From assembly GCA_965220745.1 (NCBI GenBank), contig CBDCQT010000012.1, positions 224,001-288,000 on the forward strand: a stretch of DNA of 64,000 nucleotides. The letters run 5' to 3'. Source of the DNA: Alphaproteobacteria bacterium (GTDB taxonomy: Bacteria > Pseudomonadota > Alphaproteobacteria > UBA828). Below, piece after piece: positions 12,060 through 52,065 of this stretch (position 1 is the first letter of the stretch; the number at the start of each line of letters is the position of its first letter). The notes under the pieces are model-generated. The model was not told the DNA's origin and ran no database searches. It saw only the letters and a list, made by a program, of their open reading frames with translations. The translations under genes and the position numbers were made by a program.

Positions 12060-13385
12060 ATGATCCGACAATCAAGGCAGACCAAACGCTCCGCTGCCGT
12101 TGCTGCAGCATTCGCCGGCGCATTCGCGCTACTTCTCACGACCGGCGCGCCATCCGCGACCGCCGCCGACGTCTACACCCCGGCGCCGCCCGAGCCCGGC
12201 ACCGACATTCCGACGGCGGAAGTGAACTTCGGCATGCGCCCCTATGCCGACAACACCTTCTACGTCATCGCAATGAAGAAGGGCTGGTTCGCAGACGCCG
12301 GCATCACGATCGGGCCGGAAGAGCTCGGCCTGAAGGTCACCGACACCAACGTCAACGCGCTGCTCCTCAACGGTCAGCTCGACATCTCGAGCCAATACTG
12401 TCCGTTGATGCTGCCGACCTACAAGAGCGCGAACACGCTGAAGTGCATCGCGTTCACCGACAACTTCCTCGGCACCGCGCTGCTCGCCAACCCCGAGCTC
12501 GGGCTGAAGAGCTTCAAGGAGTACATCGCCGAGGGCATGGGCTTCGAGGAGGCAATCACGGCCTCGTTGGCGCCGATGAACGGCAAGACCCTGGTGGGCT
12601 CGCCGGTGCTGAGCAAGCGGCCGTTCGAGGAGGCCGTCTCGGCGTTCTCAGGCGCGACCTGGGATCTCGACCTGATGGACGATGCCAAGTCGCTCGTGCT
12701 GGCCAAGGCCGGCCGTATCGACTTCGTCAATCCCGAAGGCGCGCCGATCGTCTATACCCTGATGAAGGCGGGATGGACCAACCTCATCGACGTCGGCGAC
12801 CTCTACAACTACGGGCCCGGCGGCGTGGATTCGCCCATGCAGAAGCTGGTGACCATCGTCGGCATCGCGTCGAACTCGAACTACATCAACGAGAACCAGA
12901 ACACGATCCTGCGCTTCCTCTCCGTGGCGTGGCGCACGCTCGCCGCGGTCGACGAAGACCCCTCTCTCTATGAGCTCCAGGCGCCCTATCTGAACAGCGT
13001 CGCGGGAACCGACCTGGATGCCAAGGGAGTGGAAGAGACGGTCGCCATCCTGCATCCCTACTCGTCGTTCGAGTACAACGAGAAGTACTACCGCGACGAG
13101 TCGAGCCTGCTCTACTACCTGAACGCCTGGCCCGCGATCATCGCGGACTGGGCCGAGAAGGGCCTGCTGCCTGCGGATGCGGTCACGGCCGAGCAGTTCG
13201 TCTGGGGCGCGGCGATCTGGGAGCAGATGAAGGACTACCAGGCGAAGTCGGCGGCGATGATCGCCGATCTCGAAGGCCAGTCCCTTGATGCCGACAAGCA
13301 GGCGCTGCTGGACCAGGCCAAGCAGTACTTCGAGTGGTTCAACTTCCTGGATGCCTACCGTCTGGCAACTGCTGCGTCGTCGTAG
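12060..13385 (+). CDS. ABC transporter substrate-binding protein (NitT/TauT/SsuA-like)
   Basis: Signal peptide; KKGWFADAGITI and LLNGQLDI motifs; RBS GGGAGG; precedes permeases and ATPase. Confidence 0.85.
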   Translation: MIRQSRQTKRSAAVAAAFAGAFALLLTTGAPSATAADVYTPAPPEPGTDIPTAEVNFGMRPYADNTFYVIAMKKGWFADAGITIGPEELGLKVTDTNVNALLLNGQLDISSQYCPLMLPTYKSANTLKCIAFTDNFLGTALLANPELGLKSFKEYIAEGMGFEEAITASLAPMNGKTLVGSPVLSKRPFEEAVSAFSGATWDLDLMDDAKSLVLAKAGRIDFVNPEGAPIVYTLMKAGWTNLIDVGDLYNYGPGGVDSPMQKLVTIVGIASNSNYINENQNTILRFLSVAWRTLAAVDEDPSLYELQAPYLNSVAGTDLDAKGVEETVAILHPYSSFEYNEKYYRDESSLLYYLNAWPAIIADWAEKGLLPADAVTAEQFVWGAAIWEQMKDYQAKSAAMIADLEGQSLDADKQALLDQAKQYFEWFNFLDAYRLATAASS

Positions 13386-13543
13386 GCACGGGCGTTTGAC
13401 CCTCGCCTGACGAGAGGCGCAAGGGATCAATTCAAGGCCGGCCGGCGCGCAGCGTCAGTTACGACCAGCGCGCCGGCCGTGCCGTCCCCGCCGGGGGGCG
13501 GTGCAACGGTCTGGATGGCCCACGGTGAAGCCGGCATAGTTCG

Positions 13544-14344
13544 GTGATGGCGCAGCGGTTTGACGTTCTCGGCCTGATCGGTCTCGTGCTCCTGGTGGCC
13601 GTCTGGCAGCTGCTGACGTTCGCCATCCCGCTGATCGCGCTGCCGCATCCGGCCCACGTGGCCGAGCGCATCGGCGAGGACTTTATCGTCGCGGACTACC
13701 TGCTGTTCTACGGATTGCCCGAGACGGGCCTCCTCGACAGCATGATCTACACGACCCAGAACGTCCTGATCGCGGTGGCCCTCGGGGCCACCGTCGGCAC
13801 CGTGTGTGGCCTGGTGACGGCACGCTTCGATCTGATCCGAGCGGTCATCGATCCGGTGCTCTTGGTGCTGGGGACAATCCCCATCCTCGTCCTGGCGCCG
13901 TTCTTCCTGATCTGGTTCGGCACTGGCAGGACCAGCGCCGTGCTGCTGGTGGCCATCTACGTTGCCGTCATCCTCTATATCTACGCCCAGCGCGCCGCGA
14001 GCACGCTGAATCCGGTCTACGAAGACGCCGCCTACACGCTGGGCGCGAGCCGCCGGCGTGTCGTCTGGGACGTGCTCATCAAGGGCACGGTGCCGCAGAT
14101 CCTCGGCGGCATCCGGATCGCGTTGGCGGGCGCCTGGGGCCTGGAGGCCATCGCCGAGCTGCTCGGCGCGCAGCAGGGCATCGGCAAGATCGTCCAGGTC
14201 CTCGCCGGCTCCACGGACATGGAGGGCATCTTCGCCGCTCTCCTCGTGCTCGGTATCCTGGCGGTTGTGTTCGATGCCTTCACCGCCCGATTCTTCTCCT
14301 ACGTCTCGGCGTGGAGCGTCGAGGCCCGCACCGGCGGAGGGTGA
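13544..14344 (+). CDS. NitT/TauT family ABC permease
   Basis: TIPILVLAPFFLIWFG and EAA loop DAAYTLGAS. Confidence 0.92.
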   Translation: MMAQRFDVLGLIGLVLLVAVWQLLTFAIPLIALPHPAHVAERIGEDFIVADYLLFYGLPETGLLDSMIYTTQNVLIAVALGATVGTVCGLVTARFDLIRAVIDPVLLVLGTIPILVLAPFFLIWFGTGRTSAVLLVAIYVAVILYIYAQRAASTLNPVYEDAAYTLGASRRRVVWDVLIKGTVPQILGGIRIALAGAWGLEAIAELLGAQQGIGKIVQVLAGSTDMEGIFAALLVLGILAVVFDAFTARFFSYVSAWSVEARTGGG

Positions 14345-14348
14345 TCCA

Positions 14349-15185
14349 GTGGCAAGGGCGGCAGACGGCAGAGACGTCATCGTGGCCAGCAATCTGTCGC
14401 GAACCTTCCGGCGCGCGGACCGGCAGATGGTGACGGCGCTCGACGACGTGACCTTCGGGATCGACCGGGGCCAGTTCGTCTGCCTGGTCGGGCCGTCCGG
14501 TTGCGGCAAGTCGACGCTGCTCAAGCTCATCGCCGGGCTCATGCTGCCGTCCTCCGGCGCCCTCGAGGTGGAGGGCGAGAGCGTCACCCAGCCCGGCCCC
14601 GAGCGCGGCATGGTGTTCCAGCAGGACAGCGTCTTCCCCTGGCTGCGCGTGATCGACAACGTCGAGTACGGGTTGAAGTGCAGGGGCGTCGGCAGGGCCG
14701 AGCGGCGCAAGAGCGCCGAGTTCTACCTGGAGCGCGTGGGCCTCTCGCATGTCGCCAGGGCGTGGCCGCGCGAGCTCTCCGGCGGGATGCTGAAGCGGGT
14801 CGCCGTGGCCACGGTCTTCGCCAACGGCGCGAACGTGCTGCTGCTCGACGAGCCCTTCGGCGCGGTCGACTACGTCACCAAGCGCAACCTCCACGACGTT
14901 CTGTTGGCGCTGTGGACCGAGGCGGGCTCGACCGAACGCCGTACCGTGGTTTTCGTGACCCACGACGTGGACGAAGCGCTGATCCTGGCGGACCGCATTC
15001 TGGTCATGCACAGCGGCCGCATCGTCGACGATCTCGCGGTCACGGCACCCAGGCCGCGCACGACCGACGGGCTCATGGAGCCCACCATGGTGCGGCACAA
15101 GCATGTTCTGCTCGCGCACCTCGGCCTCGAGAGCCGGCAGGGCGCCGCCGAGGCGCCGGCGGGCGGGGAGGGGACTGCGCCATGA
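14349..15185 (+). CDS. NitT/TauT family ABC ATP-binding protein
   Basis: GPSGCGKST, LSGGM, LLDEPFGA, VTHDVDEA. GTG start at 14349 after GGAGG. Confidence 0.93.
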   Translation: MARAADGRDVIVASNLSRTFRRADRQMVTALDDVTFGIDRGQFVCLVGPSGCGKSTLLKLIAGLMLPSSGALEVEGESVTQPGPERGMVFQQDSVFPWLRVIDNVEYGLKCRGVGRAERRKSAEFYLERVGLSHVARAWPRELSGGMLKRVAVATVFANGANVLLLDEPFGAVDYVTKRNLHDVLLALWTEAGSTERRTVVFVTHDVDEALILADRILVMHSGRIVDDLAVTAPRPRTTDGLMEPTMVRHKHVLLAHLGLESRQGAAEAPAGGEGTAP

Positions 15186-16111: not shown

Positions 16112-17554
16112 GTGAGCGAATTCGATCTGGTGATCCGCAACGGCAGGATCGCGACGGCGGCGGACGTCTTCACCGGCGACATCGGCATCGTGGACGGCAG
16201 AATCGAGGCCATGGCGTCCACCCTCGGCCAGGGGCGCGAGGAGATCGACGCTGCGGGTCGAACCATCACCCCCGGCGGCATCGACGGGCACATCCACCTG
16301 GAGCAACGCCTGCCCGACGGCGCCGAGATCGCCGACAACTTCTATACCGGCTCGCGCTCGGCCGCGTGCGGGGGCACGACGACCATCATCCCCTTCGCCT
16401 TTCAGGACCACGGCGCATCGCTGAGCCAGGTGCTCGCCGATTACCGCGAGAGCGCCGAGGGACGCTGCTTCATCGACTACGCCTTCCACGCCATCATCAC
16501 CGACCCCACCGCGCAGGTGCTGAACCAGGAGCTGCCCTCGCTCGTGCGCGAGGGCTACACCTCCTACAAGCTCTACATGACCTACGAGGGCCTGCAGCTC
16601 ACCGATCGCCAGGTGCTCGACGTGCTGACCGCGATGCGCCGCGAGCAGGCGATCAGCATGGTGCACGCGGAGAACACGGAGTTCATCGAGTGGTTGACCG
16701 AGCGACTGGTGGACAAGGGCCTGACCGCGCCCAAGTACCATACGAAGGCGCACCCCGTGATCGGCGAACGCGAGGCCACGCACCGCGCCATGTCCATGTC
16801 CGAGCTCGTGGGCGTGCCCATCGTGCTCGTGCACGTCTCCGCGCGCGAGGTGGTAGAGCAGATCGACTGGGCCCGTGCCAGGGGCCTCGCGATCCATGCC
16901 GAGACCTGCCCCCAGTATCTGCTGCTGACCGAGGATGCCTACGACGTGGAGGGCTTCGAGGGGGCGAAGTTCATCTGCACGCCGCCGCCCCGCACCGCCG
17001 ACGATCAGGAGGCGATCTGGGCCGCGCTCGCCCGCGATGTCTTCGACATCGTCTCCTCGGACCACTCACCGTTTCGCTACGCCGACCCCAAGGGCAAGCA
17101 GATCGCCGGGACAAGCGCCGGCTTTCACAAGGTGCCGAACGGCGTCCCCGGCGTGGAGACGCGGATGCCACTGCTCTACTCAGAAGGCGTGCTCAAGGGA
17201 CGGATCGACGTCAACCAGTTCGTCAGGATGACGTCCACCAACGTCGCCAAGCTCTACGGCCTCTATCCGCGCAAGGGGGCGATCGCGCTCGGCGCCGACG
17301 CCGACCTGGTGATCTGGGATGAGGACACGCCGGTCACCGTCACCAACGACCGGCTGCACCATGACTGCGACTACACCCCTTACGAGGGGATGACCCTCGG
17401 GGCGTGGCCCGCCGTCACGCTGTCGCGGGGGCGCCCGGTGTGGCGCGATGGCGCGCTCTGCGTGGACGCCGGACACGGAGAGTTCCAGGCCTGCGAACGT
17501 CCCGCCGTCGCGCGCGCGCCGCGCCCGACCCGGATCCCTGAACTCATTCAGTAG
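16112..17554 (+). CDS. hydA: Dihydropyrimidinase / D-hydantoinase
   Basis: PGGIDGHIH, GGTTT, SYKLYMTY (carbamylated Lys), HAEN, HVS, ETCPQYL, SSDHSP, PNGVPGVE. Confidence 0.93.
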   Translation: MSEFDLVIRNGRIATAADVFTGDIGIVDGRIEAMASTLGQGREEIDAAGRTITPGGIDGHIHLEQRLPDGAEIADNFYTGSRSAACGGTTTIIPFAFQDHGASLSQVLADYRESAEGRCFIDYAFHAIITDPTAQVLNQELPSLVREGYTSYKLYMTYEGLQLTDRQVLDVLTAMRREQAISMVHAENTEFIEWLTERLVDKGLTAPKYHTKAHPVIGEREATHRAMSMSELVGVPIVLVHVSAREVVEQIDWARARGLAIHAETCPQYLLLTEDAYDVEGFEGAKFICTPPPRTADDQEAIWAALARDVFDIVSSDHSPFRYADPKGKQIAGTSAGFHKVPNGVPGVETRMPLLYSEGVLKGRIDVNQFVRMTSTNVAKLYGLYPRKGAIALGADADLVIWDEDTPVTVTNDRLHHDCDYTPYEGMTLGAWPAVTLSRGRPVWRDGALCVDAGHGEFQACERPAVARAPRPTRIPELIQ

Positions 17555-25396: not shown

Positions 25397-26185
25397 TCAC
25401 GAGCCGAACGCCTCGATCAGGGGACCGCGCCACCCGTGATTGGTCATGTCCAGCTGGATCGGCGTGACCGAGATCGCGTTTTCGTGGATCGCGTGGAGAT
25501 CGGTCCCGGGGTGTTTGCCGCCGTCCTTGTAGCTGATCTCGACCCAGAAATAGGGCACGTGGCGCGTGTCGATGCGCCCGTCGATGGTGAAGGAGCCCGG
25601 CGGACGCTGCCCCTGCGTCGTGATATGGACACCGCTCACCGCTTCCGGCGGCGCATCCGGGAAGTTGACGTTGACCAGCGTGCCCGACGGCCAGTCGGGC
25701 AGGCGCATGAGGGTCTCGATCACGTCAGGTGCGAAGGCTTCCGCCGTGGCCCAGAGCGCTTCGTCCCCCATGGTGAACACTTGGCTGAGCGCGATCGAGG
25801 GGATGCCGAGCAGGGTTCCTTCCATCGCCGCAGCGATGGTGCCCGAATAGGTCATGTCCTCCGCGAGGTTCGCGCCGCGATTGATGCCGGAGAGCAGGAC
25901 CGTGGGCGGGCTCTCGGTCATCAGCTCGTGGATCGCCATCAGCGCGCAGTCGGTGGGCGTACCGTCCACTGCGTAGCGCTTCTCGCCCATCTGGCGCAGG
26001 CGGATCGGTGTGTGCATCGAGATGGAATGGCCGGCGCCGCTCCGCTCGTGATCCGGCGCGACGACCCAGACGTCGTCCGTCAGGCTTCGCGCGGTCGCCT
26101 CAAGTATCTTGAGCCCCCTGGCGTGGATGCCGTCGTCGTTGGTGACCAGGATGCGGTGGTGGGAGAGATCGCTCTCCGCTGGCAT
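25397..26185 (-). CDS. surE: 5'/3'-nucleotidase SurE
   Basis: RILVTNDDGIHARG, VVAP, SGAGHS, GTPTDC, SGINRGAN, YSGT, NVNFP. Start at 26185 (MPAESD). Confidence 0.93.
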   Translation of the reverse strand: MPAESDLSHHRILVTNDDGIHARGLKILEATARSLTDDVWVVAPDHERSGAGHSISMHTPIRLRQMGEKRYAVDGTPTDCALMAIHELMTESPPTVLLSGINRGANLAEDMTYSGTIAAAMEGTLLGIPSIALSQVFTMGDEALWATAEAFAPDVIETLMRLPDWPSGTLVNVNFPDAPPEAVSGVHITTQGQRPPGSFTIDGRIDTRHVPYFWVEISYKDGGKHPGTDLHAIHENAISVTPIQLDMTNHGWRGPLIEAFGS

Positions 26186-26371: not shown

Positions 26372-27124
26372 GTGGCCAAGCTTTACGTGGACACGGACAA
26401 GTACGGCGACCAGGCACACTCGCCCACCGTCGAGGCCTTCCACAGCGCGATAAAAGACCTAGTAAGGCGCCGCCTCGACGAGAGCGGGGTCGACTGGAAC
26501 AGCTTCGTCTTCGACAAGTCCTACGATCTCATCACCGCGGCCGACTTCGAGGAGATCGAGAGGAAGCTGCTCGACGCCGGGCACCGCTACGACTTCTCCG
26601 CCGTAATCTCGGTGAACGAACGGCCCGAGGCCTACAAGCCGGCCGAAGGCATCCTGGGCGACGACCCTGACTGGACCATGGAGCATCCGGACGCGCCCTC
26701 CGCCGAAGCCGATGCGGAGGGCCGCGCCCTCTGCGGCGTCGGCGACAACGTGATGCGCGTCTCCGAGAATACCGTGGGCACCGCGCGCTACGTCCGTTCC
26801 AGCAGCCAGGTCATGCACTACCTCGGAGACGGCGTACCGCCGGAGACCATCGCCATCATCGATGACTCTGGTGGCACACTGACGGCGCCAATCCTGGAGC
26901 AATTCACCGGCATCATCTGCATGGGCGGCACGGTGCGCTCCCACCTCGGCATTCTATCGCGGGAATACGGTATTCCCTGCTTCATGAATGCCAAGATTAC
27001 TGGGATCAAGGAAGGCCAGCGGGTGGAGATGGAAACGGCCGCGGCGGCCAAGACGGCTGAAGCCTACCAGAAGGGCGAGGAGATGACCGCCAACATCTGG
27101 AAGCTGGCACAGGAGGCTTCGTGA
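26372..27124 (+). CDS. Stand-alone PEP-utilizer mobile (phospho-His swivel) domain protein with an unknown N-terminal domain
   Basis: C-terminal half has LTAPILEQFTGIICMGGTVRSHLGILSREYGIPC and IKEGQRVEM. No ATP-grasp or TIM barrel. Confidence 0.85.
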   Translation: MAKLYVDTDKYGDQAHSPTVEAFHSAIKDLVRRRLDESGVDWNSFVFDKSYDLITAADFEEIERKLLDAGHRYDFSAVISVNERPEAYKPAEGILGDDPDWTMEHPDAPSAEADAEGRALCGVGDNVMRVSENTVGTARYVRSSSQVMHYLGDGVPPETIAIIDDSGGTLTAPILEQFTGIICMGGTVRSHLGILSREYGIPCFMNAKITGIKEGQRVEMETAAAAKTAEAYQKGEEMTANIWKLAQEAS

Positions 27125-28677
27125 TGGTCGGCGCACCTCGCCTCTCCTACGCCCAGCTGCTGGAAACCAACAACCTTCTGCAGACCTTCACCGACGAGAC
27201 CTACTGGCTCTGCGTCACGCGCACCGTGCAGGAATCGAAGCTCTTCCCGGTGCCGCCCTACATGCTGCTCTCCTACCTCAACGCCTTCTATCGCTATCCC
27301 TCGCTCTTGCGGAAGGTGGAGAGCGTGATGACGGCGGAAGAGATCGGCGACCGCGCCCGAGCAGGGCGCCCGCCCGGCAAGAGCGCCATGGGCTGGGGGA
27401 TGCCGGGCTTCTACTTGCTCGGCCGCGAGTGGCTCATCAACATGGGTCTGCTGCGGCCGCAGGACGCTGCCGAGGATGTTGTCTACCTGATGGACTTCTG
27501 GAAGCGCCTGCAGCTCTCCTGGCACCGCAACGACGGGCACATCACCAACAAGGAATTCGGCCACCGCTGTCAGATCCTGCCCGAGCGGCGGCTTCAGGTC
27601 TTCGAGTCCGACGCCTACGGCTGCGAGGCCGGCGATCCGCTGCACAGCGCGGCGACGCAGTTCATGGCTTCTGCGGCGCAATACGGATTTCTCGTGAGCT
27701 GCGAGAGCCGCATCAGCCTGCTCAATACCGGGCCCTACAAGCTGGCCGACGGCAACGAGATGATCGTCCGCGAATTCATGGACCTCGGCGAAGGCGACTT
27801 TCCCTGGCTCGACGACGTGGCGGCCGATATCCCCTACAACAATCTCACCGTCCCGATGCTGGTGAAGGACTGCCACTTCTACTTGGTCGACGACTGGGGA
27901 AGCTTCGAATCCGAGCCCGAGTTCCGGGCCGAAAACATCGTCGGCGTCGGCCTCTACACCTCCGACCCGCTCACCGACGGGCACATTCCGGTGGGAATGG
28001 AGAGTCGTGAGACCCTGACCGAGACCTTCCGCACGCTGGACGGGCTCTTCAAGGAGGCGACGGCGCGGCTCTGGAAGCGCATCGCGGGCTGGAGCCGCGA
28101 CCAGATGCTCGACGCGGGCGCGCTCACCTATTTCGGCATCTGCAAGGACCTCGCCCACGTCGCGGGCGTCTACGCCCAAGAGGACTGGATGCTGATCGAC
28201 GAACGGGCCGAGCGCTTCCGCCCCCTGCTCAACGACGAGTTTAGCCGCGATTGCCTGGGCGAATTGGTCGGGCTGCTGACGCTGCCGAGCCATCGCCTCT
28301 CCTCCTACAGCATGATGCAGCACGGCAACGGCCCGACCGGCATGTACACACCGATCCCCTACGCGGTCCTGGACGGCGAGGATTACGTGCCCACCTGCGG
28401 CCCGGTCTATCCTGGCGCCACCACGTTGCCGGCCAAGGCCGACCGCTACCGCACCAGCCAGGGCGTGCTGACGTTGGAGGACTATAACCATCGGGTCCGT
28501 GACTTCACGCCGCAGTCCGACCGGTATCGTTTCCTGGACGAGACCTGGCTCAAGTACAACCACGACACAGCGCGTGCCGACGAGATGTACCGGCACGAGC
28601 AGGTACGGGCGCGCAAGATCCAAGGTCGCGGGGCGTCGCTCGGCGCTGCGGAGCTGGCGGCGCTCCCCCGCGACTAG
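27121..28677 (+). CDS. Hypothetical protein, 518 aa, translationally coupled to the phospho-His protein
   Basis: Long ORF with strong GC3 bias, globular composition, GTGA overlap. No family recognised. Confidence 0.85.
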   Translation: MMVGAPRLSYAQLLETNNLLQTFTDETYWLCVTRTVQESKLFPVPPYMLLSYLNAFYRYPSLLRKVESVMTAEEIGDRARAGRPPGKSAMGWGMPGFYLLGREWLINMGLLRPQDAAEDVVYLMDFWKRLQLSWHRNDGHITNKEFGHRCQILPERRLQVFESDAYGCEAGDPLHSAATQFMASAAQYGFLVSCESRISLLNTGPYKLADGNEMIVREFMDLGEGDFPWLDDVAADIPYNNLTVPMLVKDCHFYLVDDWGSFESEPEFRAENIVGVGLYTSDPLTDGHIPVGMESRETLTETFRTLDGLFKEATARLWKRIAGWSRDQMLDAGALTYFGICKDLAHVAGVYAQEDWMLIDERAERFRPLLNDEFSRDCLGELVGLLTLPSHRLSSYSMMQHGNGPTGMYTPIPYAVLDGEDYVPTCGPVYPGATTLPAKADRYRTSQGVLTLEDYNHRVRDFTPQSDRYRFLDETWLKYNHDTARADEMYRHEQVRARKIQGRGASLGAAELAALPRD

Positions 28678-28718
28678 GCGCGCGCGCCTCTCCCTTCGCA
28701 TCCGAGCGGCCTGACCTC

Positions 28719-30212
28719 ATGCAGATCGGTGAGTACATCCGGCGCGCTGGCGCCATGTACGGCGAGGCGCTGGCGCTGACCGAAGGCGCACGCACGCTGA
28801 GCTTCCGCGAGTTCGATGCGGCGACGGATCGGCTCGGCAACGCGCTGCTGGCGCAGGGCTTCGAGCCGGGCGACCGCGTCGGCGTGCTGCTGCCCAACGG
28901 GATCGATTGTCTGATCGCTTACTACGCGCTCGCCAAGTGCGGCCTCGTGCGGGTCTCGCTCAACGTCCGCGAGACAGCGTCGGACCACCGCTACAAGCTC
29001 GGCGACAGCGGCGCGCGCGGCCTCATCCACGACGATGTCGACGATGCCGAGGGCTTCGGCGCGCCGATGGTCTATGGCCGCGAGGCGCTGCGCCGCCTCA
29101 TCGACGACGGAGCGTCCGGCGCCTGCCGAGTGGACCGCGACCTTGAGGCCCCCTTTCGCCTGGGCTTTACCGGCGGAACCACCGGCGCGCCCAAGGCGGT
29201 CACGCTGACCACGCTGGGCGAGACCGCGGAACTCGCGGCCTTTCTCATGGACCTGGTGCCTGATCTCGCACCGGGCGACCGCTTCCTCCACGCCGCTCCC
29301 ATCGCGCACGCGTCAGGCGCTTTCTTCCTGCCCTCCCTGGTGCGGGGTGTGCACCAGCTGATCATGCCGCACTTCGACGCCGCCGGCCTCATCACGATGG
29401 CGGCGAAGGCGCGCGCGACCCACACGTTTCTGGTGCCGACCATGCTGGCCATGATCATGGAGGAGCCCGCGCTGGAGACCGCCGACCTCGGCTTCAAGCG
29501 CATCTGCTACGGCGCCTCGCCGATCGCGCCGAGCCTCTTGGAGCGTGCCATGGCCCGCTTCGGCCCGGTCTTCGCACAGACCTACGGTCAGGCGGAATCC
29601 CCCATGGTGATCACCTTCCTCCGGCCGGAAGACCACGACCGCGTGGGCTCGTGCGGGCGGCCCTATACCACCGTCGACGTGGCAATCTTCGACGATGACG
29701 ACAGGCCGGTGCCCGCCGGCGAGCAGGGCGAGATCGTCTGCCGCGGCACCCAGCTCATGGCCCGTTACTGGAACCGCCCGGAAGAGACCGCCAAGGCTTT
29801 CCACAACGGTTGGCTCCATACCGGCGACATCGGTCGCATGGACGAGGACGGCTTCGTCTACATTCTCGACCGCAAGAACGACATGCTCATCAGCGGCGGC
29901 TACAATGTCTATCCCCGCGAGATCGAGGATGTGCTGCTGGCCCACGAAGGCGTCGTCGAGGCTGCGGTCGTGGGCTTGCCGGACGAAAAATGGGGCGACC
30001 GCGTCCACGCCGTGGTCGCTGGACGGCCCGGCCTGGACCCGGAGACGGTGCGGCAGTTCTGCCGCGAGAGACTCGCCGGCTACAAGTGCCCGAAGAGCGT
30101 CGAGATCTGGGACGCGCTGCCCAAGAGCGGGGCCGGCAAGCTCCTGCGCCGCGCGGTGCGCGACCGCGTTATCGCCTCCGCCGACGCAACGCCTGAGCGG
30201 CAGAGTGCCTGA
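28719..30212 (+). CDS. AMP-forming acyl-CoA synthetase
   Basis: FTGGTTGAPK, YGQAE, WLHTGD, DRKNDMLISGG, PKSGAGK. Confidence 0.93.
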   Translation: MQIGEYIRRAGAMYGEALALTEGARTLSFREFDAATDRLGNALLAQGFEPGDRVGVLLPNGIDCLIAYYALAKCGLVRVSLNVRETASDHRYKLGDSGARGLIHDDVDDAEGFGAPMVYGREALRRLIDDGASGACRVDRDLEAPFRLGFTGGTTGAPKAVTLTTLGETAELAAFLMDLVPDLAPGDRFLHAAPIAHASGAFFLPSLVRGVHQLIMPHFDAAGLITMAAKARATHTFLVPTMLAMIMEEPALETADLGFKRICYGASPIAPSLLERAMARFGPVFAQTYGQAESPMVITFLRPEDHDRVGSCGRPYTTVDVAIFDDDDRPVPAGEQGEIVCRGTQLMARYWNRPEETAKAFHNGWLHTGDIGRMDEDGFVYILDRKNDMLISGGYNVYPREIEDVLLAHEGVVEAAVVGLPDEKWGDRVHAVVAGRPGLDPETVRQFCRERLAGYKCPKSVEIWDALPKSGAGKLLRRAVRDRVIASADATPERQSA

Positions 30213-30215
30213 GCA

Positions 30216-30818
30216 ATGACCGACGCCTATCTCGTCCTGCACGGCCTCGCGATCAAGAAGCACGCGGATGCTGGTGCGGTCGCCGCCGCGCTTGGACTCG
30301 CCGAAGACGAGGTGCGCGCCATGCTGGAGGATGCAGTGACGAAGGGCCGTGCAGCGTGCGCAGGCGGGGCATATTCGCTCACACCCGTCGCCCGTGTGGC
30401 GCTCGACGGGGCCTATTCCAGGCTGTTCGCCGCGCAACGGACCAATGCAGCCTTCGCCGCTGCCCACGAGCGCTTCGAGGCGATCAATCGAGAGCTCAAG
30501 GCACTGATGACCGCGTGGCAGACCATCGAAATCGATGGCGAGAGCGTGCTAAACGATCACAGCAACAAGGACTACGACGACCGCCTGATCGACCGCCTCG
30601 GGGCCCTGCACGAGCGGGCCGAGGCGATCCTCCGGCAGCTCGCCGCCGGCCTGCCGCGCCTCGCGATCTACGCGCGCAAGCTGGAAGCCGCGCTGGAAAA
30701 GGCCGAGGACGGTGCCATCGAGTGGGTCAGCGGCGCGAAGATCGAGTCCTATCACACAGTGTGGTTCGAGCTTCACGAGGACCTGCTGCGGATCCTCGGC
30801 CGCACGCGGCAGGAATAG
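30216..30818 (+). CDS. Hypothetical protein with wHTH-like N-terminus (resembles mycobacterial Rv1126c-type partner of short PPDK)
   Basis: C-terminal SYHTVWFELHEDLL motif; stop 2 bp before the PPDK-like start. Confidence 0.75.
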   Translation: MTDAYLVLHGLAIKKHADAGAVAAALGLAEDEVRAMLEDAVTKGRAACAGGAYSLTPVARVALDGAYSRLFAAQRTNAAFAAAHERFEAINRELKALMTAWQTIEIDGESVLNDHSNKDYDDRLIDRLGALHERAEAILRQLAAGLPRLAIYARKLEAALEKAEDGAIEWVSGAKIESYHTVWFELHEDLLRILGRTRQE

Positions 30819-30820
30819 GC

Positions 30821-32581
30821 ATGGGTGCGTTTGACTGCTGGGTCCTCCCCCTCGATCGCGCCGCGCTGCCCGACCGCGCGCTCATCGGCGGCAAGGCATG
30901 GGGCATCGCCGTCATGCGCCACGCGGGCCTGCCGGTGCCGCCCGCCTTCGTCGTGACGACAGAGGCCTGCCGCGCCTATCTCGCGGAAGGCGCGCTGCCG
31001 GAGGGTCTCCTCGACGAGCTGCACGCCGGCATCACCATGCTTGAGACCGAGACCGGGCGTCGCTTCGGCGTGCCCGAGCGCCCGCTGCTGCTGGCCGTTC
31101 GCTCCGGCGCCGCCGTCAGCATGCCGGGCATGCTGGACACGGTGCTCAACCTGGGAATGAGCGAAGAGATCGAGGCGGCTCTAGCGCGGGAAAGCGGCGA
31201 CGCCGCCTTTGCCCGTGACACGCATCGGCGCTTCCACGAGATGTACGAGCGCACCGTGCTCAAGGCGGGGATCGACGGGCTCGCGCCCGAAGGATCCGTC
31301 GAAAATTGGCGCGCCGCCGTGGCGGCGGCTGGGGCCACGGGCAACGTGCCAACGGACCCGCGCGATCAGCTTTTAGGCGCGGTCAGCGCCGTCTTCGACT
31401 CCTGGAACGGCCGGCGCGCGCGGCGCTATCGCAAGCATCACGGGCTGTCCGACGACGCGGGCACTGCCGTCACAGTTCAGGCCATGGTGTTCGGCAACCT
31501 CGGCGAGAACAGCGGGACCGGCGTCCTCTTCAGCCGCAATCCACTCAGCGGGGCGCCCGAGCCATACGGCGAATACCTTGCCCGTGCCCAGGGCGAGGAC
31601 GTGGTCTCCGGCCAGCGGACGCCACAGGGACTGGATGCGCTGGCGTCGTCCCTGCCAGACGCGCACGCCGCCCTGATCGACGCCGCGCGCAAGCTCGAAA
31701 CCCTGAACCGGGATGTGCAGGACATCGAATTCTCGGTACAAGATGGCACGCTCTACCTGCTACAGACTCGCACCGCCGCGCGGGCCCCCGCCGCGGCCGT
31801 CCGCATCGCGGTCGATCTGGTGAACGAGGGAACCATTTCCACCGACGAGGCTCTCGCCCGCGTTAGTGCGAACCAGGTCCGCGCGCTGCTCATGCCGCGC
31901 CTTGCTGATGGCGCCGCCGAGACCGCCCCTCTTCTCGCGGAGGGAGAGGGCGCGAGCCCCGGCGTCGGCATTGGCGCGGCCGTGCTGGACGCCGATGCGG
32001 CCGAAGCCCGTGGTGCGGCTGGCGAGGACGTGGTGCTGGTGCGCCCGACCACCAGCCCGGAGGACGTGCACGGCATGGTCGCCGCCCGCGCCGTCGTGAC
32101 GGCGACCGGTGGTGCGACCTCTCACGCCGCCGTGGTCAGTCGCTCCCTCGGCGTCCCCTGCGTCGTCGGCTGCGGCGAAGGCGTGGGCGCAGCGCTCGCG
32201 GGCAGGGAAGTGACGGTGGACGGCAAGGCGGGACGGGTGTTCGACGGCGCATTGCCAGTGAGCGCACCCGCGGAGACGGACGATCCGCTCCTGTGCCGGA
32301 TCGCGGACTGGGCTCGCGCGGCCACGCCGCTCGCGGTCTACCGTGCAGATGAGGCAGCGCCCAGCGACGCGCTCGAACTCGACCGCCTGCCGGGCGGCGA
32401 AGACCCCGAGAGGTTGCCGGGACTGTTGCGGGGGGTATCGGCTGCCAGCGGCGGCGCACTCGCCAGCGATGCGGGCGTCGCGGCCGCCGTCGCCGCCGGC
32501 CTCGACTTCATCGTCGTCCGCCACGCCCTGCCGGCACTGCTCGCGGCCTGTGGCGCTGCGCGCGCGGAGCCGCCCGCATGA
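30821..32581 (+). CDS. Short pyruvate phosphate dikinase-like protein (ATP-grasp plus phospho-His domains, no pyruvate-binding barrel), 586 aa
   Basis: GGKA, RSGAAVSMPGMLDTVLNLG, VQAMVFGN, SGTGVLFSRNP, QGEDVVSG, QDIEF, LLQTR, TSPEDVHGM, GGATSHAAVVSR. Only about 120 aa follow the His domain. Confidence 0.9.
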   Translation: MGAFDCWVLPLDRAALPDRALIGGKAWGIAVMRHAGLPVPPAFVVTTEACRAYLAEGALPEGLLDELHAGITMLETETGRRFGVPERPLLLAVRSGAAVSMPGMLDTVLNLGMSEEIEAALARESGDAAFARDTHRRFHEMYERTVLKAGIDGLAPEGSVENWRAAVAAAGATGNVPTDPRDQLLGAVSAVFDSWNGRRARRYRKHHGLSDDAGTAVTVQAMVFGNLGENSGTGVLFSRNPLSGAPEPYGEYLARAQGEDVVSGQRTPQGLDALASSLPDAHAALIDAARKLETLNRDVQDIEFSVQDGTLYLLQTRTAARAPAAAVRIAVDLVNEGTISTDEALARVSANQVRALLMPRLADGAAETAPLLAEGEGASPGVGIGAAVLDADAAEARGAAGEDVVLVRPTTSPEDVHGMVAARAVVTATGGATSHAAVVSRSLGVPCVVGCGEGVGAALAGREVTVDGKAGRVFDGALPVSAPAETDDPLLCRIADWARAATPLAVYRADEAAPSDALELDRLPGGEDPERLPGLLRGVSAASGGALASDAGVAAAVAAGLDFIVVRHALPALLAACGAARAEPPA

Positions 32582-35900: not shown

Positions 35901-37070
35901 GTGCGCCGCGCCCTTGTCGTCGATGTCGTCCGCACCCCCTTCGCCAAGGGGCGCGAAGGGGGCGCGCTGAGCGCGGTTCACCCGGTGGACCTGCTCGCGA
36001 AGACGCTTGAGGGCCTGGTGACGCGCACGGGCATCGACCCCGGCGCGGTCGACGACGTGATTGCGGGTTGCGTCATTCAGGTCGGCGAGCAGGCCGCCAA
36101 CGTCGGCCGCCAGGCCTGGCTCGCCGCGGGCTTCCCCGAGGGTGTTCCCGCCGTCACCATCGACCGGAAGTGCGGCTCGGCCCAGCAGGCCATGGACTTT
36201 GCGGCCCAGGGCGTGATAGCGGGCGCCTACGATCTCGCCGTTGCCTGCGGGGTCGAGATGATGAGTCGCGTGCCGATGGGCAGCAACCGGCGGGGCAAGG
36301 ATCATCTGGGGCCGATGCTGCGCCGGCGCTACGCCGACGGCCTGGTGCACCAGGGCATCTCCGCCGAGCTGATTGCTGCCCACTGGGAACTCGCGCGGAA
36401 GGACCTCGATGCCTACGCGCTCCGCTCGCACCGGCACGCGGCGGCGGCCGAGGATCGCGGGCTGTTCGCCCGCGATATCGTGCCCATCGACGGGACCTCG
36501 ACGGACGAGGGCATCCGCCGCAACACGAGCGCCGAGAGGCTTGCCGCGCTGGAGCCCGCGTTCACAGACGTCAGCACGGGTGTGCGCTTTCCTGAGATCG
36601 GCTGGGTGGTGACGGCGGGGAATTCGAGCCAGGTCTCCGACGGCGCATCGGCGATGTTGATCGCATCGGAAGCGGCGACTGAGCGGCTGGACCTGACGCC
36701 GCGCGCGGCCATCACCCACTTCGCGGTCTGCGGCGACGACCCCGTGCTCATGCTGACCGGGATCATCCCGGCGACGGAAAAGCTGCTGGCGCGGAGCGGC
36801 CGGACCCTCGACGATATCGACTGCTTCGAGGTCAACGAGGCCTTCGCCTCCGTCGTCCTGGCCTGGGCAGAGGCGTTGGGGGCGGACCTCGACCGCGTTA
36901 ACGTCAATGGCGGCGCCATCGCCCTCGGTCATCCCGTCGGCGCCTCCGGCGGCCGGCTCACGGCGAACCTGATCGGCAGCTTGGAGGAAAGCGGCGGCCG
37001 GCTCGGCCTTCAGACCATGTGCGAGAGCGGCGGCATGGCAAACGCGACGCTGATCGAGCGGCTGGGCTGA
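35901..37070 (+). CDS. Thiolase (acetyl-CoA C-acyltransferase)
   Basis: DRKCGSAQQA, NEAFA, GHPVGASG, TMCESGG. GTG start at 35901. Confidence 0.94.
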   Translation: MRRALVVDVVRTPFAKGREGGALSAVHPVDLLAKTLEGLVTRTGIDPGAVDDVIAGCVIQVGEQAANVGRQAWLAAGFPEGVPAVTIDRKCGSAQQAMDFAAQGVIAGAYDLAVACGVEMMSRVPMGSNRRGKDHLGPMLRRRYADGLVHQGISAELIAAHWELARKDLDAYALRSHRHAAAAEDRGLFARDIVPIDGTSTDEGIRRNTSAERLAALEPAFTDVSTGVRFPEIGWVVTAGNSSQVSDGASAMLIASEAATERLDLTPRAAITHFAVCGDDPVLMLTGIIPATEKLLARSGRTLDDIDCFEVNEAFASVVLAWAEALGADLDRVNVNGGAIALGHPVGASGGRLTANLIGSLEESGGRLGLQTMCESGGMANATLIERLG

Positions 37071-43087: not shown

Positions 43088-43906
43088 TTAGTGCATCGCG
43101 GGTTCCTCGGCCAAGCTGGGTGGCCGGCGGAGCGTAGCGGAGCCGGGCGGCCAGCTTGGCATGATGATCGTCTCCGGGGCCGGCGGCCGGTATCCCAGGC
43201 TGCCGTGTGGGCGGATCGCGTTGTAATGGCACCGCCACGATTCGATGAGAACCTGGGCTTCCTTCAGGGTGTAGAAGATCTCCCCGTTCAGGAGCTCGTC
43301 GCGCAGCCGCGCATTGAAGCTCTCGATGTAGCCGTTCTCCCAGGGTGAGCCCGGCTCGATGAAGGCGGTGCGGGCGCTGACCGCAGCGATCCACCGCCTG
43401 ACGGCCTCGGCGACGAACTCCGGACCGTTGTCGGAACGGATCCAGGTCGGAATGCCGCGCAGGATGAACAGGTCGGTCAGCACATCGATGACGTCGATCG
43501 AGGAAAGCCTCCTGCGCACCCGGATGACCAGGCTCTCGCGGGTGAACTCGTCCAGGACGTTGAGCATGCGGAAGGCCCTGCCGTCATACGTCCGGTGATG
43601 GACGAAGTCGTAGGACCAGACGTGATCCGCCCTCTCGGCGCGCAGCCGGATGCAGGAGCCGTCATTGAGCCAAAGCCGGCCCCGCTTCGGTTGCTTGCCG
43701 GGCACCTTCAGCCCCTCGCGCCGCCACAAGCGCTCGATCCGCTTGTCGTTGACCTGCCAGCCGGCATCGCGAAGCAGGGCCGCGATGCGGCGATAGCCGT
43801 AACGGCCGTACTGGCGGGCCAGCTCGATCATGTACGCGACCAGGCGGTCCTCGTCGTCGCGGCCGCGCGGGATGCGGCGCTGGGTCGAGCGGTGCTGCCC
43901 CAGCAC
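43088..43906 (-). CDS. IS3 transposase OrfB (DDE integrase core), likely expressed by frameshift from orfA
   Basis: YGYRRI, WSYDF, RSDNGPEF, PGSPWENGYIESFN. Confidence 0.93.
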   Translation of the reverse strand: MLGQHRSTQRRIPRGRDDEDRLVAYMIELARQYGRYGYRRIAALLRDAGWQVNDKRIERLWRREGLKVPGKQPKRGRLWLNDGSCIRLRAERADHVWSYDFVHHRTYDGRAFRMLNVLDEFTRESLVIRVRRRLSSIDVIDVLTDLFILRGIPTWIRSDNGPEFVAEAVRRWIAAVSARTAFIEPGSPWENGYIESFNARLRDELLNGEIFYTLKEAQVLIESWRCHYNAIRPHGSLGYRPPAPETIIMPSWPPGSATLRRPPSLAEEPAMH

Positions 43907-47131: not shown

Positions 47132-50100
47132 ATGGTCTCGACCGTCACACCCCTGAAGCCCGCCGCTGCGACGGTGCACTACTTCGAGGTGGACGGGTAC
47201 TACGCGAAGAACGACCCGGAGCACCGCAAGGCGAGCCGCTGGCACGGCGAGGCTGCGGCGTTGCTGGGCCTGCACGGGCGGGTCAACCCGAAGCGCTTCG
47301 AGGCGATCCTCGCCGGCTACGTGCCAGGCACCGAGCTTCGCCTGGGGCGGCTGCGCGACGGCGAGCACCAGCACAGGCCCGGCGTGGACGTGACCCTCTC
47401 GGCGCCCAAGTCGGTCTCGCTGGAGGCGCTGGTCTATGCGCCGCCGAAGACGGGGGCACGTGTGTTGCGTGCGCACGACGAGGCGGTGCGCGCCACGCTG
47501 GGCTTCATCGAGGCGGAGCTGCTCCAGACCCGGAGCTACGACCGGCAGACGGGTCGGCGGCCTCGGGTGCAGGCCGACGGCATGGTCGCGGCGACCTTCC
47601 GCCACCTGGCGAGCCGCAACCTCGACCCGCAGCTGCACACGCATGCGGTGATCGCCAACATTACGCGCGGCCGGGACGGGGACTGGCGCAGCGCCGAGTT
47701 CACCGCGGTGCAACGCTCGAAGCTCTTGATCGGCGCCTACTACCGCAACGAGCTTCGGACCCGGCTCGAAAAGATCGGATACGCGACAGTGCCGACCCTG
47801 GTGGGCCGGATGCCGGGGTTCGAGATCGCGGGCTACCAGCGGCCGATGCTGGACGCGTTCTCGACCCGGCGCCGTGAGCTTCTGGACTACATGCAGGAAC
47901 AGGGCTGGGAGAACAACCCCGCCAGGGCCCAGCAGGCGGCGCTCTACACGCGGCGGCGCAAGGCGGAGCCGGAGCGGCAGATCCTGCTTGGGACGTGGCA
48001 GGAGCGGGCCCGGGAGCTCGGCCCGGCACGGGACCGGGACATCGCAAGGGGCCGCAACGGGGTCAGCGCATCGGCACTTTCCCGGAGCGAGGCGCGAGCG
48101 CCTCCGTCGGCGCTGTCGGTGGTGAGGCGGGCCGTCGAGCATCTTGAGGAACGGCGCACAGTGTTCTCCGCCAACGACCTGCGCGCCTGGGCGCTGGCGC
48201 ACGGGGGCGGCCGGCACTCGCTCGAAGCGCTGGATGCCGGTATCGCGCAGTTGCGGCGTGACGGGCACCTGATCGAGGCGAAGGCGAGGCGAGCAGACCT
48301 GGCCTTCGTCACCGACCGGGCGCGCAATGCCGAGCGCGACATCCTCGCCGGCATGCGCGCGGGCCTGGGCGGGGGTCGAAAGCTGGCGCCGAAGGCTGCG
48401 GTCGAGGCCCGGCTGGAGGAGGCCGGACTCAACGAGGGCCAACGCGATGCAGCCAGCACGATCCTGCTCTCGCCCCACCGCACGGTGGGGGTGCAGGGCC
48501 ACGCGGGATCGGGCAAGACCACCATGCTGCGCGCGGTGGCGGCGCTGGCGGAGGAGCGGAAAATCATTGGCCTCGCCCCGTCGGCGAGCGCAGCCCATGT
48601 GCTGGCCGGAGAGGCCGACATTCCGGCCCGCACCCTGCAGGGGTTCCTCGCGCGCTACCGCGACGTGGGCGACGGCATCGCCCCGTCCGAGAAGATGGAA
48701 GAAGCGCGCAAGGCCCTGGGCGGTGCCGTGCTGATCCTCGACGAGGCCTCGATGGTGGGCACGGTGCAGATGCGGGCATTGACGCGGATCGCAGAGCAGA
48801 CCGGCGTGGCACGGCTGGCGCTGGTCGGCGACCGCCGGCAGTTGCGCTCAGTGGAGGCCGGCCAGCCCTTCGGCCTGTTGCAGGACGCGGGCATGCCGAC
48901 GGCGAAGATGAACGAGGTGATGCGCCAGCGCGACGCGGACCTGAAAGCTGCCGTGCTGCACATGGTGGCGGACAAGCCACGGCTGGCGGTGGAGGAGCTG
49001 GGCAACGGGGTCCTGGAGATGGAGAGCGACGAGCTCGGCCGCACGGCGGCCCAACTCTGGCTGGACCTCCATCCGTCCTTACGCGCCGGAACGGCGATCC
49101 TGGCGCCCACGCACGAGCTTAGGGCCGAGATCAACGAAGCCGTTCGCCACGGCCTGGAAGACGAAGGGTTGCTGCACGGCCCCGAACTGGAGATCGAGCG
49201 CTACGTCAACCTGCAGCTGACACGCCCGCAGAAGGGCGATGTCGCGAACTACCGGCCAGGCGACGTCGCGGTCTTCCATCACGACGTCTACGGCGTCAAG
49301 GCCAGGGCCGGCGATGCCTGCCGCGTTCTCGAGGCACAGGATGACGGGCGTGTGCTGCTGGCGCATCCCGACGGCAGGGAGCGGCGGATCGACCCGGCCG
49401 GCTACATCCGCTACCGGCTCGACCTCTATGAGACACAGCCGATTGTGCTCAGGGCCGGGGACCAGGTGCGCTGGACCCGCAACGATGCGTTGCGCGGCCT
49501 GATCAACGGCGAACACGCCGAGATCCTCGCTATCGGCCCGGCAAACGTGCACATGCGAACCCAGGACGGGCGCGAGATCGCCATGCGGCGCGACGACCCG
49601 CAGCTGCACCATCTGGACCACGCGTACTCCTCCACCGTGCACGCGGCCCAGGGCCTCACCTGCGACCGGGTGATCGCGGTGCTCGACACGGACCGGGGCG
49701 CGCCGGTCGACCAGGCGATGTTCTACGTGGAGCTCACCCGCGCCAGGGACAACGTGGTGCTGCTGACGGACGACCGCGAGGCGCTGATCGAGGCGCTGGA
49801 GACGGCGCCGGCGGAGGAGCTGTCGGCGCTGAAGGCGATCGGCGAGCAGTTCGAGGCGCCGGAGGAGACCGTTCAACGGCACCCGCTGCATCAGCGGCCT
49901 GCCGTTGTTGACGGTGCAACGAGGGAGCGGCGCAGGGCAGCGGAGCGCCTCGTCGATCAAACCCTGTCGGCGGGCGCGGCCTTGATCCGGGAGCGTGACG
50001 AGCACGCCCGCGAAGCCCATTCGCGTGACGCTCACGTCACCCTTGCGCCCGGCTATGACGAATGGCGGAAAGGCGCCGTGCAGACGCTGGCCGATTGCAA

Positions 50101-51706: not shown

Positions 51707-52065
51707 CCTCGACCCTCGCCGCTGTCATCGGCACGGCTCTGTGCCTCCCTCACCAGGAAGGCGAGCGCCCCGAGCGCCGACATCTCCGTTCCTTGCAACC
51801 GCGTCAGCAACGCCTCGTTGCAGCGGTCCAGGAGCGCTATCCGCTCGTAAAGAATCCGCTGTTCGTCCTCGCTCAGCACCAGGCTCGGATCCTCCGACTC
51901 GTCCTCCTCGTCCCTGCCATGCAGCGCGCAGGCGATCATGAAACGCGAGAAGTTCATCCCCGCTTCCTCGGCGCGCCGTGCAATCAGCGCTCGGTCCGCC
52001 GCCGAGCAATAGATGCTGTGCTGCCGTACCCTGTCTCGCTTGCCGCTCTCCCCGTCCGCCGTCAT
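51703..52065 (-). CDS. Ribbon-helix-helix (MobC-like) protein
   Basis: HSIYCSAADRALIARRAEEAGMNFSRFMIACAL. Confidence 0.75.
   Translation of the reverse strand: MTADGESGKRDRVRQHSIYCSAADRALIARRAEEAGMNFSRFMIACALHGRDEEDESEDPSLVLSEDEQRILYERIALLDRCNEALLTRLQGTEMSALGALAFLVREAQSRADDSGEGRG

Follow-up and report, generated by a model that had tools for sequence, protein, structure and literature searches.

Within a 64,000-nucleotide (nt) stretch of DNA from an alphaproteobacterium of the UBA828 lineage (assembly GCA_965220745.1, contig CBDCQT010000012.1, positions 224,001 to 288,000 of the forward strand), hereafter referred to as the window, an operon of nine genes, lettered A to I in their order, encodes four proteins (A, B, D, and E) that probably form a multi-subunit kinase of the dikinase type serving the carboxylase of the same operon. 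Protein E is a truncated pyruvate phosphate dikinase (PPDK), A carries a second swivel-His domain, D combines a winged helix with a helical bundle, and B belongs to a family without a name. The system represents a variant of the Hpe/Acv-type pathways and is new in kinase architecture. An earlier note on this DNA, made from the sequence letters alone, had proposed a four-component relay system at 26372–32581. Its view of the proteins as one unit holds, with both His motifs invariant, but they do not constitute a free-standing relay, since they are the kinase module of a carboxylase operon. Likewise, the four proteins at these positions are confirmed, whereas a 497-amino acid (aa) coenzyme A (CoA) ligase encoded between B and D had gone unmentioned and the operon continues past 32581. 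The decisive context had thus been missed, namely the biotin-dependent carboxylase, the CoA ligase, and the thiolase in the operon and a phosphatase next door.

Protein E and the Truncated Dikinases

Protein E aligns with the solved PPDK chain 1kbl_A over PPDK residues 3–548. Its letters equal those of PPDK at GGK, VRSGA..SMPGM.DT, DIEF, and LLQTR, and its GGATSHAAVV, which contains His435, aligns to GGMTSHAAVV of PPDK; we take these five segments to be the PPDK catalytic motifs. The swivel-His domain (PF00391) occupies residues 402–471, and the motif GGxTSHAAVV is invariant in all 16 relatives over which it was counted. The chain ends 151 aa past His435 and 115 aa past the end of the Pfam His domain, and its conserved part stops near residue 520, after which an Ala-rich tail varies. 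Of the canonical PPDK features, the ATP-grasp domain and the swivel TSH His are therefore present and the C-terminal TIM barrel is absent: the Pfam scan of E gave no match to PF02896, the phosphoenolpyruvate (PEP)/pyruvate barrel, the score against TIGR01828 (502 bits) falls short of the cut-off of 843, and the alignment stops at PPDK residue 548, presumably near the start of the PPDK barrel. A barrel hidden by a frameshift was ruled out by the end of this alignment, by a genome-wide PF02896 search, which found the domain only on other contigs (C7, in an 898-aa open frame, and C11, in a 634-aa open frame), and by the overlap of the E stop with the start of the next gene, because of which no frameshifted barrel can follow E. 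The description of E in the earlier note, as a 586-aa PPDK-like protein with intact ATP-grasp motifs and GGATSHAAVV and without a pyruvate-binding domain, is thereby borne out, and its estimate that the chain ends about 120 aa after the motif was fair.

By its sequence, E belongs to the known group of truncated PPDKs that includes VadK (PRK05878). In a tree of 22 rows, for which full-length PPDKs were cut to their first 560 residues, E fell into a group of 19 rows (support 94/92) together with truncated forms from actinobacteria and betaproteobacteria; the rows outside this group were the full-length PPDK of the source genome, a full-length PPDK of Methylibium, and a long E-like protein of genome G113. 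A full-length PPDK gene on a plasmid of Methylibium petroleiphilum PM1 (L022, 7917–10451) lies among microcompartment shell genes (BMC domain, EutM, EutN) and also adjoins aldehyde dehydrogenase and haloacid dehalogenase-type (HAD) hydrolase genes. VadK (Rv1127c), a mycobacterial PPDK without a barrel, is reported to autophosphorylate its His with ATP and Mg; it was produced together with Rv1126c, its operonic partner, and washing with 2 M NaCl was needed to separate the two (PMC13400623, 2026). Protein E resembles VadK in having an ATP-grasp domain and a swivel His without a PEP/pyruvate domain, and its autophosphorylation is predicted by analogy. The likeness extends to a partner gene of approximately 200 aa beside E, that of D, which lies 2 nt upstream and whose product matches a 201-aa mycobacterial protein. 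Unlike VadK, E is encoded within a catabolic operon that also specifies another His carrier, A, and a putative substrate domain, B.

Proteins A and D

The swivel-His domain of A is a weak but significant match to PF00391 (Table 1). Its motif reads GGTVRSHLGIL and contains His191, and all 15 A orthologs over which the motif was counted share the pattern GG(T/S)xRSHLGIL. A second His swivel in a separate 250-aa protein, as claimed in the earlier note, is thus present. Against the models of the phenylphosphate-synthase type (PRK08296), NF006153 and NF006151, A scored 16 bits, where the cut-offs are 578 and 693.

The structural model of D (pLDDT 89.1) consists of two parts. Residues 1–71 match winged helices of the MarR type (Z 11.3, root-mean-square deviation [rmsd] 1.8 Å, 71 aligned, 5h3r_A), and residues 78–197 form a helical bundle with generic matches (Z 11.7, rmsd 2.8 Å, 113 aligned). 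Among the invariant residues of D, the many His, Asp, and Glu residues stand out, including those of NDH at 113–115 and YHTVWFELHE at 179–188. A 201-aa protein of several Mycobacterium species shares 36% identity with D over the full length of D (E 2e-29), and D-like genes adjoin E-like genes on plasmids of M. avium, Diaphorobacter, and Rhodococcus. Some sources call relatives of D MarR-family regulators. D is proposed to be an adaptor between E and B.

These features also bear on a different explanation, according to which the four proteins serve as a regulatory phospho-His system that modifies catabolic enzymes or a regulator instead of a metabolite. The MarR-like winged helix of D and the naming of its relatives would fit such a role, as does VadK, which is described as a regulatory kinase interacting with methylcitrate-cycle enzymes (PMC13400623). 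This explanation is nevertheless very improbable: the genes lie inside a catabolic operon with overlapping stops and starts, the identity of 64–70% between B proteins of different bacterial classes is of a level usual for enzymes, another type of kinase holds the same position in homologous carboxylase clusters, and D, encoded between enzyme genes and found fused to B, would be unusual for a DNA-binding regulator.

Protein B, a Family without a Name

At least 988 homologs of B were found, none of them named. The model of B (pLDDT 84.8, pTM 0.87) had no convincing relative in the Protein Data Bank (PDB) by Foldseek (best E 0.089), and its best match among 48,161 chains by VIA-align had a Z of 4.0 (rmsd 5.6 Å, 102 aligned); in these comparisons the whole 518-residue model was used and not its single domains, so that a known fold could still exist. 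A profile of 30 B sequences reached a best E of 0.74 against the PDB sequences, and a protein atlas search with B gave no usable match. Furthermore, no match was obtained between B and the NCBIfam models of the phenylphosphate-synthase type, nor was B related to the PEP/pyruvate barrel in the genome-wide PF02896 search or in its own structure and profile searches. Further relationships were tried with hhalign and rejected, namely to the substrate domain of the rifampin phosphotransferase (RPH)/PigC-like type (probability ≤0.5%), to the small partner proteins of RPH/PigC modules, to an Rv3169-family protein, and to a DUF7064/7065 protein (probability ≤1% each).

Across the whole family, only G101, R102, R197, Y206, P266, and G349 are invariant, and the two invariant arginines would suit a phosphate site. 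The distant relatives are approximately 370–385 aa long and cover B residues 15–370 only, because of which the last 150 residues of B are considered limited to its subfamily. In some distant relatives a swivel-His domain is fused directly ahead of the B core, which makes B the strongest candidate for the part that binds the substrate.

Proteins A, B, D, and E as One Unit

Three kinds of comparative data, i.e., fusions, co-occurrence, and synteny, show that the four proteins form a unit. Among the 270 B homologs listed for examination (120 from one search and 150 from a second), D is fused at the C-terminus of B in six (P0063, P0070, P0071, P0104, P0241, and P0243), and an A-like His domain is fused at the N-terminus of B in four (P0296, P0308, P0313, and P0390). 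The P0308 fusion looks irregular and is not to be relied on, whereas P0390 (777 aa) holds all three parts in the order His domain, B core, and D.

In a sample of 301 genomes of the class of the source organism, one of them unpublished (G240), B is present in six genomes and D in exactly the same six. Full-length B orthologs occur in four of the six, and exactly these four have an NF004531 match of at least 689 bits; the other NF004531 matches listed in this sample reach at most 545 bits and all come from frames of canonical length. The NF004531 cut-off itself (456 bits) cannot separate truncated from full-length PPDK, because full-length PPDKs pass it as well with 507–545 bits. In all five B-bearing genomes that were searched, A is present, and the carboxyltransferase H is present in three of them. 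In a phylum-wide sample of 401 genomes searched with B, only the source genome itself contained it, indicating that the system is rare.

Gene order provides the third line of evidence. In 13 of 14 B-bearing loci of species genomes, A, B, D, and E occur together, the 14th being a contig of 3 kb. The genes F and G follow in 13 of 13 loci and H in 12, the contig of L014 ending before H, and ligase gene C sits between B and D in 12 of the 13 full loci (missing in L011). The hosts of the 14 loci are Rhodospirillales-like metagenome-assembled genomes (MAGs), Roseiarcus, Gemmobacter, an Acetobacteraceae MAG, and a gammaproteobacterial MAG, and the gene order is conserved in Alpha- and Gammaproteobacteria and in Rhodococcus. 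Carriers of the operon include Rhodococcus oxybenzonivorans S2-17 and Roseiarcus fermentans DSM 24875, which, judging from their strain names, are presumably cultured strains. In R. oxybenzonivorans, the same operon lies on plasmid pRB98 and ends with genes of an OB-fold protein, a thiolase, a tyrosine-phosphatase-family protein, and an SRPBCC protein. Upstream of it (L018, 1–3601), a second, paralogous set comprises a B-like protein, a 542-aa protein in which a His domain is fused to the B core, and an Rv3169-family protein (NF053593, 400 bits).

Two layouts are rearranged. On pSA1 of Novosphingobium resinovorum, the genes run B, F, G, H, ligase, thiolase, SurE (on the opposite strand), A, D, and E, and in genome G048 an inversion parts A-B from C-D-E-F-G-H-I; in these layouts A-B and D-E are the stable pairs, and the set as a whole stays together. 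The A match (G048:C1:1895911-1896651) and the H match (1906470-1907924) of G048 contain one TAG each, which is either the stop at the end of the match or internal. The earlier note had described each His protein as tightly coupled to a protein of unknown function (518 and 200 aa); A and B overlap, D and E lie 2 nt apart, and the pairs are not independently distributed.

The Carboxylase Context and Hpe/Acv-Type Pathways

The closest known systems are Hpe of Rhodococcus rhodochrous GD02 (HpeHI, HpeCBA, HpeD, and the ligase HpeE), AcvABCDEF of Sphingobium SYK-6, and XccBCA of Aromatoleum aromaticum EbN1. In the Hpe and Acv pathways, a two-subunit kinase of the phenylphosphate-synthase type (HpeHI or AcvAB) phosphorylates 4-hydroxyacetophenone or acetovanillone, a carboxylase of biotin carboxyl carrier protein (BCCP), biotin carboxylase (BC), and carboxyltransferase (CT) subunits (HpeCBA or AcvCDE) follows, an HAD phosphatase (HpeD or AcvF) then strips the phosphate, and a CoA ligase and a cleavage enzyme complete the pathway; the Hpe carboxylase accepts the phosphorylated ketone only (PMC9618137; bioRxiv 10.1101/2022.04.28.489975).

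The operon in the window shares with these clusters a kinase followed by BCCP, BC, and a CT of the pyruvate-carboxylase type, and a phosphatase and a CoA ligase in the cluster; the order F-G-H is that of hpeC-B-A and acvC-D-E. The differences concern the kinase, which has two subunits of 71 and 41 kDa in the described Hpe/Acv systems and four proteins here (the PPDK-type E with its own His, together with A, B, and D), the phosphatase, which is SurE here and HAD there, and the last step, which involves a thiolase here and a hydrolase there. Both kinase and phosphatase are hence present but drawn from other families. Because the same carboxylase genes occur in the same order with the kinase genes replaced, A, B, D, and E are read as the kinase that prepares the carboxylase substrate. 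Protein H is 47–68% identical to the carboxyltransferases of other A-B-D-E clusters and 39–41% identical to those on pBAR1 and a Pseudomonas putida YC-AE1 plasmid, which served as stand-ins for HpeA, XccA, and AcvE.

Both of these plasmids, pBAR1 of Sphingomonas bisphenolicum AO1 (L023, 3972–9357) and the P. putida YC-AE1 plasmid (L024, 4883–10365), carry a Tm-1-like ATP-binding gene, then BCCP, BC, and CT genes, and then an HAD hydrolase gene; we take the two hosts to be bisphenol degraders. The Tm-1-like gene may represent a third type of kinase on the same carboxylase chassis, and from such gene neighbourhoods the kinase slot appears exchangeable.

Phosphatases of further families recur in related clusters, a Y_phosphatase3 gene being found in L012 and L015 and annotated on pRB98, while a genome search found none in the source genome. 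The recurrence bears on the possibility that the kinase makes the enol phosphate of a ketone, as PEP synthase does with pyruvate, and that the CT carboxylates this compound with loss of the phosphate. The derivation of E from PPDK, whose product is an enol phosphate, and the pyruvate-carboxylase type of H, which acts on the methyl group next to a carbonyl, are consistent with such a reaction. It is improbable, however, given that the phosphatases (SurE here, Y_phosphatase3 in L012, L015, and pRB98, and HAD in Hpe/Acv) suggest a phosphate ester that outlives carboxylation, that B has no relationship to the PEP/pyruvate barrel, and that in Hpe the phosphate is described as sitting on the phenolic oxygen and being removed after carboxylation (PMC9618137).

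As for the substrate of the phosphorylating kinase favored here, the substrate-binding protein, the two ADC-family proteins, the short-chain dehydrogenases/reductases, and the 3-hydroxyacyl-CoA dehydrogenase encoded nearby gave only generic family names, and the transporters near the cluster are an ABC transporter of the LIV type here and of the sugar type in L012 and L015. All that the neighbours indicate is an alcohol or a ketone that is finally converted to acyl-CoA, and the substrate cannot be named from them.

Proposed Mechanism and the Two Histidines

Six steps are proposed for the pathway. The ATP-grasp domain of E would bind ATP and phosphorylate its own His435, as has been shown for VadK (step 1). 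D would link E to B, as suggested by the B–D fusions and the constant adjacency of E and D (step 2). His191 of A would take the phosphoryl group from E and hand it to a small molecule held by B, a step suggested by the fusions of His domain and B, the invariant His, and the invariant arginines of B (step 3). The phosphorylated compound, most likely a ketone bearing a hydroxyl group, would then be carboxylated by F, G, and H on a methyl or methylene group adjacent to its carbonyl (step 4), and the SurE phosphatase of the cluster would strip the phosphate (step 5). Finally, ligase C would form the CoA thioester, and thiolase I would split it into acetyl-CoA and acyl-CoA (step 6). Steps 4–6 are modelled by analogy on the published logic of Hpe/Acv.

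Step 3 can be compared with other members of the dikinase superfamily in which the substrate module varies. Phenylphosphate synthase (proteins 1, 2, and 3 of Thauera aromatica) and CreHI are described as split dikinases that likewise activate a compound before carboxylation, with the ATP-binding part and the part comprising substrate domain and His on separate proteins. Neither A nor B matches the alpha subunit of phenylphosphate synthase (approximately 70 kDa, PRK08296 type, with a C-terminal His domain), nor is the beta subunit (approximately 40 kDa, ATP-grasp only) matched, as E has 586 aa and its own swivel His; moreover, E is of the PPDK type, whereas the ATP-binding part of phenylphosphate synthase is of the PEP-synthase type. 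In the dikinase relatives RPH and PigC/RedH, a different substrate domain likewise takes the place of the TIM barrel; by contrast with the present set, RPH and PigC are single chains with one His, and B is unrelated to their substrate domain.

The phenylphosphate synthase arrangement suggests an alternative to step 3 without a relay, in which His191 of A receives its phosphoryl group straight from the ATP-grasp domain of E and His435 is regulatory or a second, parallel carrier. Direct charging would resemble phenylphosphate synthase, whose beta subunit charges the His of the alpha subunit, and A and B together have the make-up of such a substrate subunit, i.e., a His domain plus a substrate domain. 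In phenylphosphate synthase, HpeHI, and AcvAB, as the sources describe them, a single His domain resides on the substrate subunit and the ATP-binding subunit is separate (PMC9618137; bioRxiv 10.1101/2022.04.28.489975). Direct charging is nonetheless rather unlikely, since His435 and the entire motif around it are conserved without exception in the 16 relatives, where a vestigial residue would be expected to drift, and since VadK, a relative, is reported to phosphorylate the equivalent His (PMC13400623).

A second His module near an E-like/D-like pair recurs elsewhere. On the M. avium plasmid (L019, 7968–14223), an E-like gene is followed by a D-like gene, and a barrel-less 503-aa "PEP-utilizing enzyme" is encoded approximately 1.6 kb downstream of them, past an acyl-CoA dehydrogenase gene. 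On the Diaphorobacter plasmid (L020, 4643–9443), a barrel-less "PEP-utilizing enzyme" of 572 aa is encoded directly upstream of the E-like and D-like genes. Both proteins match the substrate domain and His part of the RPH/PigC type and lack an ATP-grasp domain; a protein of approximately 300 aa without a family is also encoded in both loci. Furthermore, a distant cassette of genome G113 (L025, G113:C1 3118–8316), preceded by the genes of two DUF7064/DUF7065 proteins, encodes in the same four-gene order a His protein (136 aa), a B-like protein (502 aa), a D-like protein (192 aa), and a PPDK-like protein (835 aa). The last approximately 320 residues of this PPDK-like protein had no PF02896 match at E ≤ 0.001, and in the tree the protein groups with the full-length Methylibium PPDK. 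The M. avium, Diaphorobacter, and G113 loci are the main support for two cooperating histidines, which on this genomic evidence alone may be suggested.

Several points weigh against the kinase reading or its novelty. B matches neither a known fold nor a known phosphotransfer motif, so that placing the substrate site there draws on domain order and conservation. The distant version of the cassette occurs in genomes G113 and G272, in which the genome search gave no carboxyltransferase match; the kinase is therefore not bound to carboxylation as such. Enzymes of the SurE family are annotated as nucleotidases, and the neighbouring SurE may be unrelated to the pathway. VadK is regarded by its authors as a regulatory kinase acting on methylcitrate-cycle enzymes and not as part of a small-molecule kinase (PMC13400623). 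As to novelty, literature titles and abstract openings on such clusters, acetophenone, Rv1126c, and Rhodococcus S2-17 contain no description of a four-protein kinase; supplements lie outside this scope, and the related-cluster figure S5 of PMC9618137 may already show this type of cluster.

Operon Layout and Genomic Neighbourhood

From the open reading frames (ORFs) and their junctions, the plus strand between 26372 and 37070 reads as a single tightly packed operon with the gene order A-B-C-D-E-F-G-H-I (Table 1). The stop of A and the start of B overlap (GTGATG), as do the stop of E and the start of F (ATGA), and F overlaps G; the stop of D lies 2 nt ahead of the ATG of E. The listed ORF of thiolase I starts at 35847, but the likely start is the GTG at 35901, directly after the H stop. 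Against NF006761 (pyruvate carboxylase subunit B), H scored 312 bits and did not reach the cut-off of 402.

Table 1. Operon genes and the adjoining phosphatase gene, in window positions. Scores are from the Pfam/NCBIfam scan of the window proteins; "no family" denotes none at E ≤ 0.01.
Feature	Position	Strand	Family evidence
SurE-family phosphatase	25397..26152	-	PF01975, 202 bits; NF001490, 330 bits with this start
A, 250 aa	26372-27124	+	PF00391, 29 bits (cut-off 23.1; residues 158-220); N-terminal ~120 aa, no family
B, 518 aa	27121-28677	+	no family
C, AMP-forming acyl-CoA ligase, 497 aa	28719-30212	+	PF00501, 233 bits; PF13193, 72 bits
D, 200 aa	30216-30818	+	sub-threshold FeoC winged-helix match, 18.9 bits (cut-off 21)
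E, truncated PPDK, 586 aa	30821-32581	+	PF01326, 147 bits; PF00391, 82 bits; NF004531, 713 bits
F, biotin carboxyl carrier protein, 163 aa	32578-33069	+	PF00364, 52.6 bits; TIGR00531, 105 bits (cut-off 115 not reached)
G, biotin carboxylase, 453 aa	33066-34427	+	NF006367, 612 bits (cut-off 597)
H, pyruvate-carboxylase/oxaloacetate-decarboxylase-type carboxyltransferase, 486 aa	34439-35899	+	PF02436, 96.7 bits
I, thiolase	35901-37070	+	PF00108, 208 bits; PF02803, 136 bits

The SurE gene is divergent from A and is the second SurE copy of the genome, the other being located on contig C13. Its ORF as listed extends to 26443, and the Pfam domain begins at ORF residue 98. This SurE is the candidate phosphatase of the pathway; in the wider locus table, a SurE match (coverage of at least 60%) was found beside the cluster in 11 of 17 loci.

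Two runs of RNA libraries (X1 and X2) contain 5–6% of the sampled words. Their contigs are mostly 90–95% alike to the window and hence come from relatives. Coverage extends to 30 of 30 bins in X1 and 22 of 30 in X2, and one contig of 380 letters spans the A/B junction. The libraries may contain DNA, and the matches are not counted as proof of transcription.

Further away, genes of TrwC-type relaxases/helicases at 6922–10935 (minus strand, 1337 aa) and 47132–50506 (plus strand, 1124 aa) flank the operon region, near which an rve integrase gene (43088–43906, minus strand) and a NikA-like gene (51703–52065, minus strand) are also located. The region may be a present or former part of a mobile element, although close relatives hold the operon in the same neighbourhood. 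Upstream of the cluster lies a dihydropyrimidinase gene (16112–17554, plus strand; NF009941, 724 bits), adjoined by the genes of an ABC transporter (12060–15185, plus strand), the first of which (441 aa) has no family.

Perspectives

Tentatively, the scheme may be extended from this operon to the family. Truncated PPDKs of the VadK type with their 200-aa partner could be general ATP-driven phospho-His donors that charge a second swivel-His carrier on a substrate module, i.e., a true two-swivel relay; this generalization is possible, with the odds against it. In its main text, the VadK paper uses none of the terms acceptor, phosphorelay, and PEP-utilizing (PMC13400623). If the generalization is true, one ATP might load both histidines, from its beta and gamma phosphates, and the B core would represent a phospho-acceptor domain of a class new to the superfamily. 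The generalization would also account for the RPH/PigC-like modules without a barrel that are encoded near D-like and E-like genes on actinobacterial and betaproteobacterial plasmids and would hint at the kind of partner to be expected for the mycobacterial kinase.

If the kinase reading of A, B, D, and E is correct, the operon would add a fourth architecture to the dikinase superfamily, beside the barrel-bearing, the RPH/PigC-like, and the phenylphosphate-synthase split forms, with four proteins, two phospho-histidines, and a substrate domain without a solved relative. The route by which a ketone is phosphorylated, biotin-dependently carboxylated, and dephosphorylated would then be modular, with three unrelated types of kinase and at least three families of phosphatase on one carboxylase chassis. 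Furthermore, the finding gives the truncated PPDK family, one member of which is needed for virulence in a major pathogen, a testable biochemical role.

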